Of a stretch of 64,000 bases of DNA, positions 25,067-33,405 are shown in pieces (position 1 is the stretch's first letter; the number at the start of each line of letters is the position of its first letter). Source of the stretch: an uncultured Sulfolobales archaeon (GTDB lineage: Archaea > Thermoproteota > Thermoprotei_A > Sulfolobales > NBVN01); assembly GCA_938083005.1 (NCBI GenBank), contig CALKCU010000016.1:4285-68284 (forward strand), written 5' to 3'. The position numbers were made by a program, and so were the translations under genes. A model generated the notes under the pieces. It was not told the DNA's origin and searched no databases. It saw nothing but the letters and a program-made list of their open reading frames with translations.

Positions 25067-25375
25067 TCCGGGCCCTTAGCGATCCTCGGGAAGACGGTGA
25101 GTTTTAAAGCGGCAGGACCATTAGCCGGAGACCGTTCGTCTCTGGATGCCCGGCGCACTCAGGGACTTCTGCCTCGCCCGCGGATGCTCCGCTACTCCCC
25201 GCACAATCATGAGCAGCCGTAGAACCAGCGGAGCGGTGCTCCCATCGTCCCCGGCCAGGAGTAGGAGAGGCTTTCTTAAGAACGCCGCACCGCTGAAGAA
25301 GCGGCCCATTTCCGGCACACATGCCCCTGGATAGCGCGGACCTCTTTTTAAGGGGAGCTCCTATTGGGAACAGAC

Positions 25376-25822
25376 ATGGCTGTAGAGAGGGGGTTGAGAA
25401 GGGGGGTAAGCGAGCTGGTGATAGTGCTAGCCCTCATAGCGATAATAATCCCCATAGTGATGGTGCTTCAGGGATGGCTCTCTAGCAGAGCGGGAAGCCT
25501 CGAGGGCATCAACGTTATCCAGCCCCTCAGCGGGTATGTGATCAGCAGAACCTACACGGACGGTAGGGAGGTCATTACGATAGGTCTGCGTAACCAGGGT
25601 CAGACCTCGTACGAGGTGAAGGGCTTCAAGGCCGTGCTGGTGAACGGGTCTGTGAGAGACGTAGAGTGGTCCAGCAGCACTGCCGGCACCGTACTAGAGC
25701 CGGGTAGTGAGAGGGTATTCGTCATCACCGTCTCCTCAGGCTCGACTAGGGTCAAGAGCATTGTAGTGACAGCGAGCGAGATTGCCACCGGAAAGCGCGT
25801 CGAGACTTCGATAAACCTGTGA
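25376..25822 (+). CDS. prepilin-like protein with class III (type IV pilin-like) signal peptide
   Basis: MAVERGLRRG|VSELVIVLALIAIIIPIVMVL: a charged n-region, Gly, then a long hydrophobic helix. ATG at 25376 is 27 nt after the TATA box ctttttaagg. The track start is a TTG at 25364. Confidence 0.55.
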   Translation: MAVERGLRRGVSELVIVLALIAIIIPIVMVLQGWLSSRAGSLEGINVIQPLSGYVISRTYTDGREVITIGLRNQGQTSYEVKGFKAVLVNGSVRDVEWSSSTAGTVLEPGSERVFVITVSSGSTRVKSIVVTASEIATGKRVETSINL

Positions 25823-25978
25823 GAGGCCTAGCGCCCCCGAACACAAACCCAGGGGTGTTTTTAGCTGGAGGTCCTCCTCAGCTACAACGTCGGGCTTTCC
25901 TCCATAAGCATAGTCAGAGACCCCTCCGGGAACTACCACTACCTCGTCAGCGACATAGACCCGGAGAAGTACGAGGCC

Positions 25979-28240
25979 GTGGCGAGGCTCGTTAGCAAGG
26001 CCCTGGAGCTCGTAGACCCGAGGAGGAGCGCGGGAGTCTACGACGTCACCAAGGCCGTGCTTGCGTACCTCAAGGGCTACGACCCGGAGCTCGTATCATA
26101 CGTGGTAAGCAGGGAGCTCAAGTACAAGAAGCTCCAAGTCCTCGTCGACGACCCCTACGTGGAGGACGTATCGATAGTCGGCCCGGGACCGGTTTGGGTT
26201 AGGCACAAGTACGTGCTCGAGAGGGATCCCTCGGCTGACTACATCGAGACGAACATCGTGATATCCTCCCACGAGGAGCTGATGAGCTATATGGAGCTCA
26301 TAGCCGAGAGGTCCGGCAGAGTGGTGAATAGGAAGGCCCTCGTCATGGACTTCACACTCCCCGAGGAGGACGGCGGTCACAGAGTCCACCTAGTCCTGCC
26401 CGACGTGGCCCACCCGACCGGGGAGGTGGTCATTAGGAAGAAGGTTCACCACGGCTCTGTAGACCTCGACGTCCTCGTTAAGACCGGGACCGTGCCGGAG
26501 CCTGTGGCTGAGCTGGTAAAGCTCGTTGTCAGGAGGGGCGGGTCCCTGGTAATCCTCGGACCCCCGGGGTCTGGTAAGACCACCTTGCTCAAGGCCATAC
26601 TGTACTCGGTCATCCCCAGGCACTGGAAGATAGCGATAATCGAAGACACTCCCGAGGTGGACGTGCCGAAGGGCGCCAGCTGGGTCAGGTACGCTGTGCC
26701 CGCCAACGTCTGGGGTTCTGATAGGGGGGTGGACCAGATGGCCTTAGCTAAGGCTGCTCTCAGGGCCTCGGTCAGCCGGTTCCTGGTCATCGGCGAGACC
26801 CGGGGCGCCGAGGCGAAGGTGCTGGCCCAGGCTATGAACATGGGGCTGGGCGGTCTATGCCTGCCGAGAGACCAGCTGGTCCTGGCAAGGGTCGACGGGC
26901 GGGTGGACCTCTACGAGATCGGAGAGTTGGTGGACGGAGTGTTGAGGGGCGACTACGGCAGAGTAGAAGTCGTAGCGCCCGGACCAGATCTCGAGCCGAC
27001 GTGGCGACCGATATCCGCGGTGGTCGTGAAGAGGGGGTCCGGCAGGTTCGTGAGGGTCGAGGTCGACGGCGGAGCCGTGCACGAGGTCCACGAAGAGCAC
27101 ATCGTCGTCGTAGCGGGCAGAGGATCGGGTCTAGAATTCAAGAGAGCGAGAGAGCTCGAGCCCGGCGACCTGCTGATAGCGCTCCCCCATCCCCCCAGAT
27201 CGACCAGCGAGAATGCCTTCGTGGAGGTCCCGGTGCTCACCGGAGACCCGGGATCCGGACCCCCCAGCGCGCCCGCTCCGCTAACGAGCCAGGCCATCCA
27301 CCTGAGGCTTAGCAAGAGCCTGGGGTACGTCGTGGGAGCCTACCTGGCGGCGGGCTCCCTCGCGGGGGACCGCTCTGGGGTCCCGGTGGGAGTTCGGTTC
27401 GACGTCAGCGCGGACGCTTTGAGCAAGCTTCTCGCGTCCCTGGAGGGCGTGGGTCTCAAAAGCGCCGAGATCGAGACCGCCAGTGCCCCGCTCGGGGGCT
27501 TTGCCCGTGTGGTCGCGAGGTCCCGGGTCCTGGCCCAGCTACTCGCCCGCATCGCGGGCGAAGACTCCGACGCCAAGCGCGTGCCACTGAATCTAGCCCT
27601 CGAATCGGGTAGGGAGTTCAGAGCGGGCCTGGTGGAGGGATACCTCGAGAGCTCTCGGAGCCCGCGCACGGGGGATGGTATCGGGATGCGCGCGCCGAGC
27701 CGGAAGCTGGCGGAGTCCCTAGCCCTCGTCCTCAAGACCTTCGGTCTGCAGCCCTCGGTTAGGAGCTCTGAGTCGGGCGACTACGAGATCCTCGCCGAGG
27801 AGGGGGAGGTCAGGAGGCTTCTAGCGAGCCCCGAGTGCGGTGGCGGGCCGGTGCTGCTGAGGGTCAGGAGGGTGGAGGTGGTCGAGAAGGAGAGTCTGCT
27901 GTACGACGTCGAGGTCCCGGGAGCTCACCTCTACGCCATTTCGGGCTCCCTGATACTGACTCACAACACGACATTCCACGCGGGCTCGCCCGAGGAGGCT
28001 ATCGTCAGGCTCACCTCGCCCCCGATAGAGCTGGCCCCGCAGCAGCTCGCCATGATCTGGCTCTTCGTCACGCTGGGCTTCCTCGAGGGGGAGGGGTTGA
28101 GGAGGGTCGTCGTCAGGGTCGACGAGCCGGTGCTCAAGTCGAGCACTCTGGTCCTCAACACGATCTACAGATACGGTGAGGAGGTGGACCTGGAGACGCT
28201 TACCAAGAGGTTTACTAGAGCGAGAGACCTATGGGTCTAG
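25979..28240 (+). CDS. PilB/FlaI/VirB11-family secretion ATPase, intein-containing
   Basis: DPYVEDVSIVGPG, Walker A ILGPPGSGKTTLLKA, IIEDTPE, VIGETRG, and AQAMNMGLGGL[intein]TTFHAGS (compare FlaI QAMQTGHSVMATFHA, from memory). A homologous-looking N-terminal extension lies upstream of the GTG start (see findings). Confidence 0.85.
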   Translation: MARLVSKALELVDPRRSAGVYDVTKAVLAYLKGYDPELVSYVVSRELKYKKLQVLVDDPYVEDVSIVGPGPVWVRHKYVLERDPSADYIETNIVISSHEELMSYMELIAERSGRVVNRKALVMDFTLPEEDGGHRVHLVLPDVAHPTGEVVIRKKVHHGSVDLDVLVKTGTVPEPVAELVKLVVRRGGSLVILGPPGSGKTTLLKAILYSVIPRHWKIAIIEDTPEVDVPKGASWVRYAVPANVWGSDRGVDQMALAKAALRASVSRFLVIGETRGAEAKVLAQAMNMGLGGLCLPRDQLVLARVDGRVDLYEIGELVDGVLRGDYGRVEVVAPGPDLEPTWRPISAVVVKRGSGRFVRVEVDGGAVHEVHEEHIVVVAGRGSGLEFKRARELEPGDLLIALPHPPRSTSENAFVEVPVLTGDPGSGPPSAPAPLTSQAIHLRLSKSLGYVVGAYLAAGSLAGDRSGVPVGVRFDVSADALSKLLASLEGVGLKSAEIETASAPLGGFARVVARSRVLAQLLARIAGEDSDAKRVPLNLALESGREFRAGLVEGYLESSRSPRTGDGIGMRAPSRKLAESLALVLKTFGLQPSVRSSESGDYEILAEEGEVRRLLASPECGGGPVLLRVRRVEVVEKESLLYDVEVPGAHLYAISGSLILTHNTTFHAGSPEEAIVRLTSPPIELAPQQLAMIWLFVTLGFLEGEGLRRVVVRVDEPVLKSSTLVLNTIYRYGEEVDLETLTKRFTRARDLWV
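26858..27967 (+). mobile_element. 370-aa intein with LAGLIDADG homing-endonuclease domain
   Basis: Begins with Cys (CLPRDQLVLARVDG) and ends ...LYDVEVPGAHLYAISGSLILTHN, followed by Thr(+1). Two LAGLIDADG-like motifs (LGYVVGAYLAAGS, FRAGLVEGYLESS). Removal restores a contiguous conserved ATPase motif. Confidence 0.85.
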
Positions 28241-29658
28241 CCGATTCCCCCGTTCTCTCGGTGGCTAGGGTCCTGGGAGGGTACCTGGAGCTGCTGAACT
28301 CGGTGAGGATAAGGAGGGGTAAGCCGAGGCTCGAGCCCCGCAAGGGGGCCCTCTACGTGCTGAGGGTCTCTGCCGTACCGACCATAGCTGCTTTATCGGC
28401 TTCGTGCGCGGCACCGCTCCTCCGCAATCCGGGTCTGATCTACTACGCGATCCCCGCGGCGGTCCTCACACTCCTTCTGGCGCCCCTAGCTGCGGAGTAC
28501 CTGCTCTACCTCGGCTACGTGAGGAACTTGGGGGAGGACCTAGCGTACTTCATGATGCTAGAGGGGGTGAGCCCCGGTGACGACCTGCTGAGGGACCTGG
28601 AGGAGGAGTCTAGGTCTCTGTGCTCGTTTCTCCCAGCGTTGTGCAACGAGTGCTCCAGGCTCAGACTGTTCACCAGGTTCTTCCCCGGCGCGAGGGGCGT
28701 CAGAGAGTACGTTTCGAGAGCCCCGAGGCCGATGAGGAAGCTGCTCCTGGAGTACATGGTGGTCCGCGAGAGCGCCGATCTCGGCTCGTGGCTCTACGGC
28801 AAGTTTCGGGAGGTCCTCCGAGAGCTCAAGAACTCCGCGAGAAGCTCGCTGGAGCTCAAGACCCTCCTGAGCCTGGCCGCGGTCGTGTTCAACGGCCTCT
28901 CGCCCCCCCTGATCGCCCTCGCGACGGCACTGAGCAGCGCGGAGACCCCTCACGCCTACCTAATCATAGCAGCGCCCGCTGCTGCCCTGGTCGCGGCGGA
29001 GGGGTTGGCTCCCAGGTTACTGAAGGTGTCCTCCGAGAGTAGGGAGCTCGGGTACCTGGCCCCCCTACTGATGGCGCCTCTCCTCTCGCTCCCTCTGCTT
29101 GGACCCAGGACCTCGGCTACTCTGCTGGGCCTCCTCCTCACCGCTCTGGGAGCAGTCGCGACTGCGAGGTACGCTAAAGCGTACTCGGTCGTCATGTCGC
29201 TGCCGTCCCGGCTAGTCGTCCTGGCGGACAAGATACCCTACTCCAGCAACCCCAAGAGGTTAGTGGAGGAGAGCCTGGCTGACGCGCACGGCCGCGGCGT
29301 CCTCCCCTCCCTCTGCTACCACATGCTCCTGAGGTCCGTAAAGCAGGGGAGCGTGGACACGGTCAGAGTGATCGCGTTTAAAGATATAGTCGAGGAGCTC
29401 TTCTCCCTGGTAAAGCAGGGCACCGCGGTGAGGATCCTGGTCCTGGTCACGGCACTCTCCCAGCCCTTCATCTTCAGCTTCTCGACGTCCCTGGTCGCAG
29501 CGCTGGGGCTGGCGAGCGGGGGGATCGGCATCTACGGCCTCGCGTCGTCCCTCCTCTATAGCTCGGTCGCGACGTTCGCCGTCTTCGGCACCTTCAAGAA
29601 CACACTCCTAGCGGGACTGGTGCTGCTGGAGCTCTGCGCGCTCGGTGTGGCTCCGTGA
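28231..29658 (+). CDS. polytopic membrane protein, FlaJ/TadC/PilC-like platform (tentative)
   Basis: 475 aa with two repeats of a soluble helical segment followed by TM helices. Start overlaps the ATPase stop by 10 nt. Confidence 0.6.
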   Translation: MGLADSPVLSVARVLGGYLELLNSVRIRRGKPRLEPRKGALYVLRVSAVPTIAALSASCAAPLLRNPGLIYYAIPAAVLTLLLAPLAAEYLLYLGYVRNLGEDLAYFMMLEGVSPGDDLLRDLEEESRSLCSFLPALCNECSRLRLFTRFFPGARGVREYVSRAPRPMRKLLLEYMVVRESADLGSWLYGKFREVLRELKNSARSSLELKTLLSLAAVVFNGLSPPLIALATALSSAETPHAYLIIAAPAAALVAAEGLAPRLLKVSSESRELGYLAPLLMAPLLSLPLLGPRTSATLLGLLLTALGAVATARYAKAYSVVMSLPSRLVVLADKIPYSSNPKRLVEESLADAHGRGVLPSLCYHMLLRSVKQGSVDTVRVIAFKDIVEELFSLVKQGTAVRILVLVTALSQPFIFSFSTSLVAALGLASGGIGIYGLASSLLYSSVATFAVFGTFKNTLLAGLVLLELCALGVAP

Positions 29659-31721
29659 TGGTCCCTCTCGTGACCAGGATAGTGAAGCTGGACGAGGTTC
29701 TCGGCAAGCTGGGACCAGTCGATGGCGTGGAGCTGCTCAGGAGCGCGCAGGGCAGACCCGCGCTTAGGGTTGTAAGTGACGGAAGTGCTCGCTTCTACTC
29801 CCTCGATGAGGAGCCCCTGCTGGTGGCGACCATAGGCTCCCCACCGTCGGTCCTGAGCGTAGGCGGGGTCCGCGTTGAGGGCTCCGGTCACGAGGTGTCC
29901 CTCACAGCCGGGGGGAGGGTGTTCCGGGGCAGCGGGCTAGTCGGGGAGTCCGGGACTCTGGCCTACTTCATCGTATGCAGGAGGAGCAGGTGCCGCGCTG
30001 GAGTGGTCGACCTCGTCGACGGGCTCGTCAGGCTCTACGACGTAGATGGCCTGCGCCCCGCGGACCTCCGGGGCTTCGCGGTCAGCGCGGGTGCGGAGGG
30101 CTTCTCCGTAGCCAACAGGTCTTTAACCATCTCCGTGTCCACTAGTGGAGTGGAGCTACTGCCGGGGTTCTTCAGGTTCATCGCGAGCTGCCCGACCGGG
30201 GACTACCTGGTGGACCGGGAGGGGTTCCTAGTGAGGGTCAGGAGAGGAATCATCGATGTCCTCGGTAGAGTGGTAGAGCCTGTCTCGGCGGCATGCCTGA
30301 GCGACGGAGTAGTCGTGGCAGACAGAGAGGGCCTCAAGGTCGTGAGATACGGTGCCTACACCACCGTACTCAAGGAGGCGGTCAGGGAGCTATCCTCGTT
30401 CAGGGACGTGGTCTCCGCCGTGAGTAGGGCGGGAGTGGTCAGAATACTGAGCGGCAAGGACTCCTACGTTCTCGACTCTCCCCTGCTGAGATCGTGCAAG
30501 TCGACTAGGAGGGGGGTCGCCTGCCTCACCGAGGACTCCATCGTCTTCCTGGACCCGGAGGTCCGCATCGAGGTGGAGGTGGACGTCGCTGGCGGCAACG
30601 AGGGAGAGCCGGTAGAGCTGAGGGTCAAGCCATGGTTCGAGAGCTGCCGCCTCTCGATCGCCCCAAAGCTCATCGGGATCCTAGACAGGGTCGTAGACGA
30701 CGGGGCGCTCCGCGCTAGGATATACCCGAGGATCCTGGGGTGGGAGGGCTACGTCAGGGTCACCGTGGAGTGTCCCACCTACTGTCGGAGCGTCGACGAG
30801 TACGTCAAGTTCGGTAGCCTAGAGCTGGGGGAGGTCCTCGAGAAGTACGTCGCCGTGGTCAAGTCGGGGAGGATTCTGGGGAGCGTAGACCACAACTGCC
30901 TCGGCCGAACAACCTTTAGGGTCCTCAGCGGCTTCCCGCTACCCGTCCCCCTCAGAGTGACAGCAACAGGTCTCGAGGGGGCTAGCGTCACGCTCAGCAG
31001 AGACGTGGTAGTCCCCGGGCTCAACGAGGTCTCTGTGAGGCTCACGGGGAAGTGCTCCGGCGACGGCGGAGTGTTCGTAAAGCTGACCAGCGGTCCGGGA
31101 GTTGTCGAGCCCGAGGAGATAGCGACGATCTACATAGACCCCGGGGAGTTCAGGGTCATCGAGTGGAGACCCGACGAGGAGGTCTCGATCTCCAGTGAGG
31201 GCCCCGGGAGCGTGGTAAGAGCGCCGGACTCCTACCTGAGGCTCTACTGCTCGAACGGGAGGACATTCGAGGGGCGTGATAGCATCGCTGTGGAGGACTG
31301 CGAAGAGCCCGCCCTACTCGATGTAGCTAAGGTCTTAAGCGAGGGCGGCGAGGCGTTCGAGCTCAGAGCGGGGAGAGTCCTCAGGGACGCCGTTCGGAGA
31401 TGCCTTAGCGGTTCCGGGAGTGCTAGAGTCGTCGCCGGGGGGTTCTACGCGGACTGCGGCAAATACGAGGTCACCGCCGGCGAGGACCTCCGCTTGAGGA
31501 TGGAGTACGAGAGCGGCTACAGGGTCTCCGTCTACCTCGGCAACGCTAGGGCGCGCGAGCTGAGGCTCAACCCGCTCTACCTGCTGACGGGGTTCTCCGT
31601 CGGCCTGGGCCCGGGCAGAGTGGAAGTGGACTGGAGGAGCGTGTTCAGGCTGGCCCTCTGGACAGCCTTGTCGATAGGGCGTTACGTAGAGGAGCTAGTC
31701 CATGGACGAAGGGACTTATGA
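29655..31721 (+). CDS. hypothetical protein (688 aa), operon member
   Basis: Long ORF coupled to neighbours (4-nt overlap upstream, 20-nt overlap downstream). No recognisable motif, signal peptide or clear TM helix. Confidence 0.7.
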   Translation: MMVPLVTRIVKLDEVLGKLGPVDGVELLRSAQGRPALRVVSDGSARFYSLDEEPLLVATIGSPPSVLSVGGVRVEGSGHEVSLTAGGRVFRGSGLVGESGTLAYFIVCRRSRCRAGVVDLVDGLVRLYDVDGLRPADLRGFAVSAGAEGFSVANRSLTISVSTSGVELLPGFFRFIASCPTGDYLVDREGFLVRVRRGIIDVLGRVVEPVSAACLSDGVVVADREGLKVVRYGAYTTVLKEAVRELSSFRDVVSAVSRAGVVRILSGKDSYVLDSPLLRSCKSTRRGVACLTEDSIVFLDPEVRIEVEVDVAGGNEGEPVELRVKPWFESCRLSIAPKLIGILDRVVDDGALRARIYPRILGWEGYVRVTVECPTYCRSVDEYVKFGSLELGEVLEKYVAVVKSGRILGSVDHNCLGRTTFRVLSGFPLPVPLRVTATGLEGASVTLSRDVVVPGLNEVSVRLTGKCSGDGGVFVKLTSGPGVVEPEEIATIYIDPGEFRVIEWRPDEEVSISSEGPGSVVRAPDSYLRLYCSNGRTFEGRDSIAVEDCEEPALLDVAKVLSEGGEAFELRAGRVLRDAVRRCLSGSGSARVVAGGFYADCGKYEVTAGEDLRLRMEYESGYRVSVYLGNARARELRLNPLYLLTGFSVGLGPGRVEVDWRSVFRLALWTALSIGRYVEELVHGRRDL

Positions 31722-33405
31722 GCTTAGAGACGGGCTCCTGGTGTACAGGGGAGACGCCGAGGTATGTGTCAAGAGAGTGACTAAGGTATCGAACGTGAGC
31801 ACCGCGGTGCAGGACCTCGACGACCACGCCGCGGTGAGGTACGTCAAGGCGTACGCCAACGCCCTCAACCTCGGCTTCCCCCTGGAGTTCTACACTGCGG
31901 TGAGGCCTGTGGACAGGGTGGCGTTCGCAAAGAGTCTCGAAAAGGTCATAACCGAGAGCATGATCGTTTACGAGGTCAATCCGTTCAAGTACGATAGCAA
32001 GATAAGGGCGGCGAGAGCCAGGCAGCTGAGGAACAGAGTCCTCGAGGACTCCGTCCAGCCCTTCGAGGTCGAGGTCTACGTGGCCGTCTCCTCCTGCGCC
32101 GAGGACTTCGAGACCGCTCTGGAGGCTCTGAGGACCAGGCTGAGGGTCCTGAGGAGCACGCTGAGTACCCTGGGGGTGGATCTCGAGGAGGTCGACGCGG
32201 GGAGAGTGATCACCAAGCTGGCCCTAGCCGAGATGCCCCAGCGGAGGCGCGGTCTCCTCCGCAGAGTGGTCGATAGGCTCAAGAGGAAGATAGTCGCGGT
32301 GGACTTAGTCTCGGTACCGGTCTTTACGTTCATCCCCCTGCTGGGGCGAGCGAGGCCCTCCCTGAGGTCCTCGGGGGTAAGGCTGGGGGTGGACCTGGAG
32401 AGTGGAGAGGAGGTCTACTGGAACCCGGACGAGGCTACGTCTCCCCATGTGCTGGTGGTGGGGCCCTCCGGAATAGGCAAGACCACGTTCCTGGCCGAGC
32501 TCTCGCTATCCCTCAGCAGGGCCGGGCTCGGAGTGCTGGTCTTAGACCCGAAGAGCGAGTACGCCAAGCTCCTCGAATCGAAGGGCGGGAGGGCCTTCCG
32601 CTATGTCCTGGGCAGGGACGTCTCGCTGGGGCTCGTCGAGCTGCTGAGGAGAGTGCGCGACGCTCTCGGCAAGGATGTCGCGGAGGTGCTGCTGGACCTC
32701 GTGGCGGTCCACAGAGAGCTCGGTAGAAGAGAGGTCTTTCAGTGCCTCTATACGGCCTTGAGTAGCATCGGTGGGATCCCGGAGAGCGGGGATCTAGAGC
32801 TCGTGGACTCTCTGAAGAGGTTCTCTAGGTACTGCCCCGAGGAGTACTCGGAGTACGCCACCGGCAAGGTGCTCTCGACGCTGGCGGCGGTGTCCGGGGG
32901 GAGGCGGGGGCTGATAAGCCTGCTAGGGGAGCTTGACGGAGTGAACATCGTGGACGTCTCGGTAGCCCTCTCCGTGGACCCCTACGTGCTGCCCATGCTA
33001 CTGAAGGTCCTCTCGATGGCCGTGAGGCTCCTGCCCAGCGGATCCCCGGAGAGGTCTAGGTACCGGAGAATGCTTGTGGTGGACGAGGCCTGGACCGTGC
33101 TCAGGGACAGATCTCTGGAGGTGGTAGAGGAGCTCATAAGGATCGGGAGGAGCTTCGGCACTGTGGTGGCGCTGGCTACGCAGGCGATAAGGGACTTCAC
33201 CGAGGTCCTGGGACCCCTAGTCGACAACCTCGGTCTACTCGTGGTGCTCCCCTCAACGAGCGCCGAGTACTGGGAAGAGGTCAGAAGGATGCTAAGGGCG
33301 AGCGGAGAGCGCGTAGAGAGGATGAGGACCCTCGGGAGGGGCTACGCTCTAGTGAGGATGGCCCCCGATCCCAGGGCTCTCCTAGTTAAGCTAGACCACC
33401 GCTAA
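31702..33405 (+). CDS. VirB4/HerA-superfamily (DUF87-like) ATPase
   Basis: Walker A VLVVGPSGIGKTTFL and Walker B RMLVVDEAWTVL. The DEAW motif is characteristic of VirB4/TrbE/CedB-type ATPases. 567 aa. Confidence 0.7.
   Translation: MDEGTYELRDGLLVYRGDAEVCVKRVTKVSNVSTAVQDLDDHAAVRYVKAYANALNLGFPLEFYTAVRPVDRVAFAKSLEKVITESMIVYEVNPFKYDSKIRAARARQLRNRVLEDSVQPFEVEVYVAVSSCAEDFETALEALRTRLRVLRSTLSTLGVDLEEVDAGRVITKLALAEMPQRRRGLLRRVVDRLKRKIVAVDLVSVPVFTFIPLLGRARPSLRSSGVRLGVDLESGEEVYWNPDEATSPHVLVVGPSGIGKTTFLAELSLSLSRAGLGVLVLDPKSEYAKLLESKGGRAFRYVLGRDVSLGLVELLRRVRDALGKDVAEVLLDLVAVHRELGRREVFQCLYTALSSIGGIPESGDLELVDSLKRFSRYCPEEYSEYATGKVLSTLAAVSGGRRGLISLLGELDGVNIVDVSVALSVDPYVLPMLLKVLSMAVRLLPSGSPERSRYRRMLVVDEAWTVLRDRSLEVVEELIRIGRSFGTVVALATQAIRDFTEVLGPLVDNLGLLVVLPSTSAEYWEEVRRMLRASGERVERMRTLGRGYALVRMAPDPRALLVKLDHR

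Follow-up and report, generated by a model that had tools for sequence, protein, structure and literature searches.

A probable class 1 intein with a degenerate LAGLIDADG domain in the His box of a FlaI/TadA-like ATPase from an uncultured archaeon

An interrupted secretion ATPase gene and its empty-site alleles

The window analysed here is a 64,000-nucleotide stretch of contig CALKCU010000016.1 (assembly GCA_938083005.1), which comes from an uncultured hyperthermophilic archaeon of the order Sulfolobales. On its plus strand, an open reading frame (ORF) called at 25979-28240 specifies a product whose ATPase core is that of T2SSE (PF00437) and whose closest NCBIfam similarities are FlaI, TadA and BasE, all of them well under the equivalog cut-offs. 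Within this gene, the segment 26858-27967 translates without a stop into 370 residues (CLPRDQLVLARVDG...SGSLILTHN; it starts with CLPRDQLV and ends with SLILTHN), flanked by ...QAMNMGLGGL upstream and TTFHAGSPEEA downstream. A previous reading of the window, made from its letters without database searches (the sequence-only reading), had taken this segment for a large intein that interrupts the secretion ATPase at a conserved motif, and the orthologues of the ATPase bear this out.

Orthologues were sought among 5.8 billion proteins and were of two kinds, intein-bearing proteins of 804-887 residues and many proteins of 416-490 residues. The close intein-bearing orthologues were 57-76% identical, and distant ones down to 38%. 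When 18 orthologues were aligned, those without an intein showed a single continuous gap exactly matching 26858-27967; such proteins (e.g. P0022-24, P0029, P0042 and P0072) read QAMNMGLGGL/TTFHGGS, where the slash, here and below, marks the insertion point. The intein-free alleles that had been proposed as a check are present in most of the orthologues placed on a tree, as 72 of 90 lack the insert.

The insertion point lies between Leu331 and Thr702 of a 791-residue precursor, within the His box, a motif that in secretion ATPases of the PilB/PilT/GspE/FlaI family is part of the nucleotide-binding site. When the insert was removed in silico, the spliced protein aligned without gaps across the junction to FlaI (PDB 4II7; qamnmglgglttfha against QAMQTGHSVMATFHA, E 1.4e-33), and also to 4IHQ and to the Archaeoglobus GspE 2OAP. 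The Pfam T2SSE score rose from 50.7 bits for the precursor, in which the match ends at the junction, to 71.3 bits for the spliced product, in which it crosses the junction. Excision thus restores the conserved QAMxxGxxxx/TxHA block, as anticipated in the sequence-only reading. The possibility that the 370 residues are an ordinary conserved domain of the ATPase is ruled out by the empty-site alleles together with the fold described below.

The length of the precursor depends on where the gene starts. ORF calling puts the start at GTG 25979, giving a 753-residue product; the frame is already open from 25865, and the 38 codons before this GTG (LEVLLSYNVGLSS...) match the conserved N-terminus of the ATPase orthologues. 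We therefore favour a precursor of 791 residues, made up of an N-extein of 331, the intein of 370 and a C-extein of 90, with a mature ATPase of 421 residues. Both Walker motifs, A (GPPGSGKTT) and B (VIGETRG), lie in the N-extein. The His box is divided, with its first half (QAMNMGLGGL) in the N-extein and its second half, TTFHAGSPEEAIVRLTSPP, at the start of the C-extein. In eight genomes of the same genus the conserved position is a TTG start, with GGTGTTTTTA(A/G) in front of it. The window shares this leader with these relatives, but at 25865 it has CTG, which immediately follows an in-frame TAG. Within 25865-25981 of the window the conserved N-terminus lacks a canonical start codon; the CTG may itself serve as the start, may be a down-mutation or may reflect an error in base calling.

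A further peculiarity concerns the His box itself. Its first histidine, which belongs to a TGH motif in FlaI, GspE and KlbA, is Leu or Met throughout the clade of the window ATPase, with or without an intein (26834-26842 in the window, MGL of QAMNMGLGGL), whereas the second histidine (TFHA) is kept.

Splicing lobes and the nested LAGLIDADG-fold domain

Alignment of the insert to intein blocks A, B, F and G found the defining residues (Table 1), with a departure at one position of block B that is taken up below. The window intein has Asp at F4, a penultimate His, a terminal Asn and Thr at +1, as well as the N-terminal Cys that had been pointed out earlier together with the final His-Asn and the Thr that follows it. 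Cys1 is invariant in all copies; across 11 relatives C1, H78, H81, D350, H357, H369 and N370 are invariant and Thr+1 is conserved.

The predicted structure is strong evidence for an intein. An AlphaFold model built from an 11-sequence alignment had a mean predicted local distance difference test score (pLDDT) of 86 and a predicted template modelling score (pTM) of 0.86, a single-sequence prediction having given a pLDDT of 36.6. The best Foldseek match of this model in the PDB was PI-PkoII (E 4e-18, template modelling score (TM) 0.73), followed by TliVMA (1e-17), PhoVMA, PI-PfuI and PI-SceI; the matching intein structures span E values from 4e-18 to 1e-9, and mini-intein structures match the two outer lobes of the model. 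In a phmmer search of the PDB with the intein sequence, PI-PkoII was also the only match, a marginal one (E 0.087).

Selection was assessed as the ratio of nonsynonymous to synonymous substitution rates (dN/dS), comparing close relatives codon by codon. In intein-bearing genes the exteins gave 0.02-0.06, that is, strong purifying selection, and the HINT lobes 0.04-0.39. Since the host gene is this strongly constrained even though its ATP-site motif is split by 370 residues, the insert is presumably removed.

In the model, helices 153-165 and 252-265 are the two LAGLIDADG helices of a pseudo-dimeric alpha-beta fold. This central domain matched in Foldseek the free-standing I-DmoI and I-Tsp061I (E about 1e-6, TM to target 0.6-0.7) and the endonuclease domains of PI-PkoII, TliVMA and PI-PfuI. 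The previous description of a full-size intein with a homing endonuclease and two LAGLIDADG-like motifs holds for the size, for the nested fold and for the presence of both motifs; it does not hold for the catalytic residues, as both motifs are degenerate. With the motif register set against aspartate-keeping copies (...FLADGS..., ...GFWDGDGT...) and against PI-PkoII (EGYFIGDG), the acidic metal-binding residue at the C-terminal end of the helix is absent from both motifs, its place being taken by Ala165 and Ser266. The catalytic positions are never acidic in any of the 18 inteins of the orthologue group: the first is occupied by A, V, T, S, G, C or R, the second by S, A, L, G or K. In copies from paralogous ATPases (L056-L058, L061-L063 and L036), motif 1 reads LADG[ST] or LGDGS, and motif 2 has the canonical Asp-Gly, as GDG or TDG.

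The PhoVMA intein, which is without its active-site aspartate, is experimentally an inactive nuclease, and its activity came back after residues were grafted (PMC8966425). As neither LAGLIDADG motif retains its catalytic acidic residue, the nuclease of the window intein is most probably inactive, and the PhoVMA precedent together with the non-acidic catalytic positions led us to read the domain as degenerate. Sequence and model thus suggest that the nuclease is probably a dead one whose fold is still maintained. With its 370 residues the window intein is the shortest of the orthologous copies (the others have 383-447), with deletions in the linker, which is shorter than in every orthologous intein, and after the endonuclease domain.

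Table 1. Features of the intein-bearing ATPase gene and its surroundings in the window, and intein insertion sites a to c in this ATPase superfamily
Feature	Position in window	Strand	Remarks
N-extein of FlaI/TadA-like T2SSE ATPase, 331 residues	25865..26857	+	Opens at CTG 25865
Intein, 370 residues, Cys1 to Asn370	26858..27967	+	Exact gap in intein-free orthologues; HINT and LAGLIDADG fold in model; Pfam Intein_splicing sub-cut-off
N-terminal splicing (HINT) lobe, intein residues 1-112	26858..27193	+	C1, H75, H78, H81 invariant in 11 relatives; dN/dS 0.07-0.19
Block A, CLPRDQLV	26858-26899	+	In N-terminal HINT lobe
Block B, GGAVHEVHEEHIVVV	27068-27112	+	His78 at B7, His81 at B10; motif HEVHEEH
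Variable linker, residues 113-150	27194..27307	+	Low-confidence loop 129-142; dN/dS 0.19-0.85
LAGLIDADG-fold endonuclease-like domain, residues 151-325	27308..27832	+	Foldseek; motif register; dN/dS 0.25-0.47
LAGLIDADG motif 1, LGYVVGAYLAAGS, residues 155-167	27320-27358	+	Ala165 at catalytic position
LAGLIDADG motif 2, FRAGLVEGYLESSR, residues 254-267	27617-27658	+	Ser266 at catalytic position
C-terminal splicing lobe, residues 326-370	27833..27967	+	Y349, D350, H357, H369, N370 invariant
Block F, LLYDVEVPGAHLYAISG	27896-27946	+	Asp350, His357
Block G, SLILTHN	27947-27967	+	His369, Asn370
C-extein, 90 residues and TAG stop	27968..28240	+	Starts with Thr+1 nucleophile
Conserved gene cluster	25364-33405		Same gene order in relatives L043-L045
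Site a (P-loop)			GxxGxGK/S...HN/T; paralogous ATPases
Site b			QAMQ/S...HN/TGH; paralogous ATPases
Site c (site of the window intein)			GHGGL/CLP.DQ...THN/[ST]TxHA

KlbA inteins, related inteins and gene neighbourhood

KlbA inteins are classic examples. They are found in Methanocaldococcus and Thermococcales (Mja KlbA, PDB 2JMZ/2JNQ) and, like the window intein, interrupt an archaeal ATPase of the VirB11/FlaI superfamily (COG0630, PF00437) in the His-box loop between Walker B and TxHA, and it had been asked whether the two share an insertion site. KlbA genes were fetched with the Mja KlbA intein (identical to residues 8-174 of 2JMZ) as a probe, and the comparison used genomes of other Methanocaldococcus and of Methanothermococcus, M. 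jannaschii itself not being among the matches. KlbA reads GEVRGEEA.SLLVAMNTGHDG/AL...VSN/CSGTLHANSADEAILRLTSPP and the window GETRGAEAKVLAQAMNMGLGGL/CL...THN/TTFHAGSPEEAIVRLTSPP, so that the junctions are ...AMNTGHDG/A...SN/CSGTLHA in Methanocaldococcus and ...AMNMGLGGL/C...HN/TTFHA in the window. Counting from the Gly of Walker B GExRG as 0, the KlbA site falls after position 20 and the window site after position 21, an offset of one residue on the N side; since the KlbA loop is longer by a residue, the offset becomes two when counted back from TxHA. The site is therefore not shared, that of the window being adjacent, 1-2 residues downstream.

The chemistry also differs. KlbA inteins belong to class 2, with Ala1, Cys+1 and a direct attack on the amide bond (PMC2807308); Ala1 was found in the KlbA-type inteins L015, L016, L018, L020, L021 and L025, in contrast to Cys1 and Thr+1 in the window. 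Moreover, Mja KlbA is a 168-residue mini-intein without endonuclease, while the window intein has 370 residues and a LAGLIDADG domain; the hosts are different paralogues and the inteins have no specific sequence relationship. These comparisons indicate that window and KlbA inteins occupy adjacent sites of the same motif, use different chemistry and are not specifically related. KlbA-type inteins (Ala1 ... SN/C at NTGHRG/.../CIGTVHA) were also seen in metagenome-assembled genomes (MAGs) of DPANN Micrarchaeota (L021 and L023), one of them in a 1148-residue ORF, and therefore as a large version of a class 2 intein.

Counterparts also exist in other hosts. PhoVMA (PDB 7QST, compared with TliVMA 7QSS/7QSU) is also a full-size archaeal class 1 intein that has kept its LAGLIDADG architecture, lost an active-site aspartate and become inactive (PMC8966425), but it sits in the V-ATPase A subunit instead of a secretion ATPase, and it lost one aspartate through a deletion in block E, whereas in the window intein both are substituted with no deletion. 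PI-PkoII (the Tko Pol-2 intein, PDB 2CW7), the top structural match, has the same HINT plus LAGLIDADG layout, but is an active endonuclease of 537 residues in a DNA polymerase, with extra DNA-binding domains and 13% identity to the window intein. As for the host class, Table 3 of Novikova et al. (2016) gives 21 inteins in archaeal VirB11 (COG0630) and 5 in CpaF, including Crenarchaeota (PMC4760082). Going by that table, these inteins share the host class of the window intein. All members of the window family that we found are from uncultured MAGs. In the literature searched, nothing specific came up on inteins in FlaI, in pilus or secretion ATPases, or in APE0745, the site-level catalogue of PMC4760082 being outside this comparison. 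As far as these sources go, the window intein is a further example, from an uncultured lineage, of a documented category (secretion-ATPase inteins, PMC4760082; nuclease-dead full-size inteins, PMC8966425).

Paralogous ATPases of the same order carry inteins at several points (sites a to c, Table 1), which with the KlbA site brings the number of separate insertion points in a single ATPase superfamily to four (the P-loop, QAMQ/TGH, the KlbA site and that of the window). The copies at site c include full-size inteins with intact aspartates, degenerate full-size ones, and mini-inteins of 162-239 residues (L031, L035, L041 and L065) from which the endonuclease domain has been lost; in L031 and L035 the same gene has a P-loop intein as well. 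One ORF of 1996 residues encoding a secretion ATPase (L075, G249:C10:15000-29000) contains three full-size LAGLIDADG inteins, at the P-loop, at QALA/TGH and at TGHGGL/STIHA, the latter two only six extein residues (TGHGGL) apart. The same tandem b plus c junction is found in L056 and L057, and L076 (G284:C41:7000-19000), a relative of L075, has inteins a and c only.

The site-c family is sporadic in the order, occurring in 27 of the 301 genomes and 16 of the 92 genera sampled, and is present in eight of the nine other genomes of the genus of the window. A HMMER search of 1.84 billion representatives returned only 42 proteins at E up to 0.001; in two index searches the hosts with Pfam annotation were all PF00437 ATPases, and all named matches were MAGs. 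No further intein was detected in the 83%-complete MAG of the window when it was searched with PF14890 and with the intein itself. Comparing intein with extein identity as a test of horizontal transfer was not decisive, as HINT identity levelled off at about 50% whatever was compared, and trees were used instead. In the intein tree the orthologue-group inteins cluster together and separately from the copies in paralogues, among which all those with the aspartates are found.

The ATPase gene belongs to a conserved cluster that is intact and syntenic in relatives. It encodes a protein of 152 residues whose N-terminus resembles that of a prepilin (RRG/VSELVIVLALIAIIIP, the slash here being that of the prepilin-like motif), then the intein-bearing ATPase, proteins of 475 and 688 residues without family matches, and a HerA/VirB4-like ATPase of 567 residues; in NCBIfam this last protein matches best to CedB, involved in DNA import (E 1.2e-50, 173 bits, below the cut-off of 700).

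Interpretation and alternatives

We consider it very probable that the insert is a standard, class 1 intein lying inside the ATP-site His box of a type-IV-pilus-like FlaI/TadA ATPase, and that its nuclease is most likely dead. Splicing would start with the formation by Cys1 of a thioester at the N-terminal junction, helped by the block B histidine; Thr+1 would attack this thioester to give a branched intermediate, and Asn370 would cyclise with the assistance of His369, releasing the intein. An O-to-N shift would then yield the mature ATPase with its motif QAMNMGLGGL-TTFHAGS restored; the predicted peptide of the spliced junction is ...GLGGLTTFHAGSPEEAIVR, reading GLGGL-TTFHAGSPEEAIVR across it. 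The precursor, with its ATP-site motif split, should have no activity as long as it is unspliced. The LAGLIDADG domain would fold but no longer cut DNA, having lost the metal-binding aspartate of both motifs, and the element would therefore be an immobile copy, slowly shrinking, and probably inherited vertically within the genus after an older invasion from a family in which the copies in paralogous ATPase genes still have an apparently intact nuclease.

Several observations weigh against this proposal. His78 stands at block B position 7, where Thr is usual, a position described as not essential (PMC2807308). The insert scored below threshold with Pfam Intein_splicing (E 1.6e-5, 25.2 bits against a cut-off of 35.8) and TIGR01443 (E 0.08, 13.2 against 15.6); the profile searches also matched the intein-containing RpoA'' and RFC equivalog models, and we regard these profile matches as suggestive and did not use them as proof. 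Splicing itself and nuclease inactivity we infer from sequence and predicted structure, the history of the intein is likewise inferred, and expression of the window copy is not certain given the CTG where relatives have TTG. The endonuclease-like domain is still constrained (dN/dS about 0.3, not 1), and may have a residual or a different function. Finally, the extein tree places the intein-bearing alleles in three separate clades, which implies either several precise losses or more than one invasion; several invasions would mean that the nuclease was active more recently than proposed.

Some of these points could be turned into a case for a working, currently mobile homing endonuclease with non-canonical active-site residues. 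Such an enzyme would account for the retention of the LAGLIDADG fold with high model confidence, for dN/dS values well under 1 in the domain and for the patchy alleles on the extein tree, and most copies conserve an acidic residue (Glu or Asp) two places ahead of the canonical one in motif 2, which might serve it. We nevertheless find it unlikely, because both canonical positions are non-acidic and highly variable among the 18 related inteins, free variation of this sort being expected of functionless positions, while sister copies in paralogues retain Asp at both; the inactivity of PhoVMA without its aspartate (PMC8966425) and the deletions affecting the linker and flanking segments of the window copy point the same way. 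Less likely still is the idea that the intein is retained for regulation: the host would keep a nuclease-dead intein across the genus as a conditional-splicing switch (responding to temperature, redox state or assembly) of a pilus and DNA-transfer machine, with the LAGLIDADG domain as a sensor or a DNA- or protein-binding module and not as a nuclease.

It is very unlikely that the window intein is the same allele as the KlbA inteins, that is, one ancestral insertion whose offset merely reflects indels in the extein loop. Both do lie in the same His-box loop of COG0630-type ATPases, their N-termini are similar ([AC]L..D[EQ]........IGE.V), and the one-residue difference in loop length leaves the register ambiguous by 1-2 positions; yet the sites differ by one residue when anchored on G-[HL] (after 20 or 21) and by two when anchored on TxHA, the nucleophiles are Ala1/Cys+1 (class 2; PMC2807308) as opposed to Cys1/Thr+1, and the host proteins are different paralogues. 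In addition, BLASTP gave only a weak match in block F (E 0.008, 16 of 50 identical), and the PDB search with the window intein did not return the KlbA intein, even though 2JMZ was included. The least probable alternative, to which we give almost no credence, is that of a fixed non-splicing domain or a decaying gene, and hence no mature ATPase. The non-canonical CTG at the conserved start position, the Leu in place of the first His-box histidine and the sub-threshold profile scores would fit with it, but every splicing residue is invariant, the exteins of intein-bearing genes are under the strong constraint described above, the MGL variant is common to intein-free orthologues and the operon is intact and syntenic in relatives; furthermore, an unremoved insert of 370 residues in the ATP-site motif would abolish function.

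For annotation, our preferred reading of a spliced, nuclease-dead intein means that the gene should be entered as coding for a FlaI/TadA-like ATPase of 421 residues and an intein of 370, and not for a 753-residue multidomain protein, and that the domain within the insert should not be labelled an active homing endonuclease. Current concepts are unchanged by it. If the improbable regulatory switch were nonetheless real, splitting of the ATP-site His box would be a post-translational control of a machine that also encodes a CedB-like DNA-import ATPase, and the constraint on the LAGLIDADG-fold domain would reflect its sensor or binding role. The by-products of this analysis, namely the four insertion points, the tandem inteins separated by six residues and, at a single site, a natural series made up of nuclease-intact-looking paralogue copies, dead full-size copies and mini-inteins, may outweigh the intein itself in usefulness; the locus and its relatives are useful for studying the homing cycle, the interference between neighbouring inteins and thermostable splicing domains.

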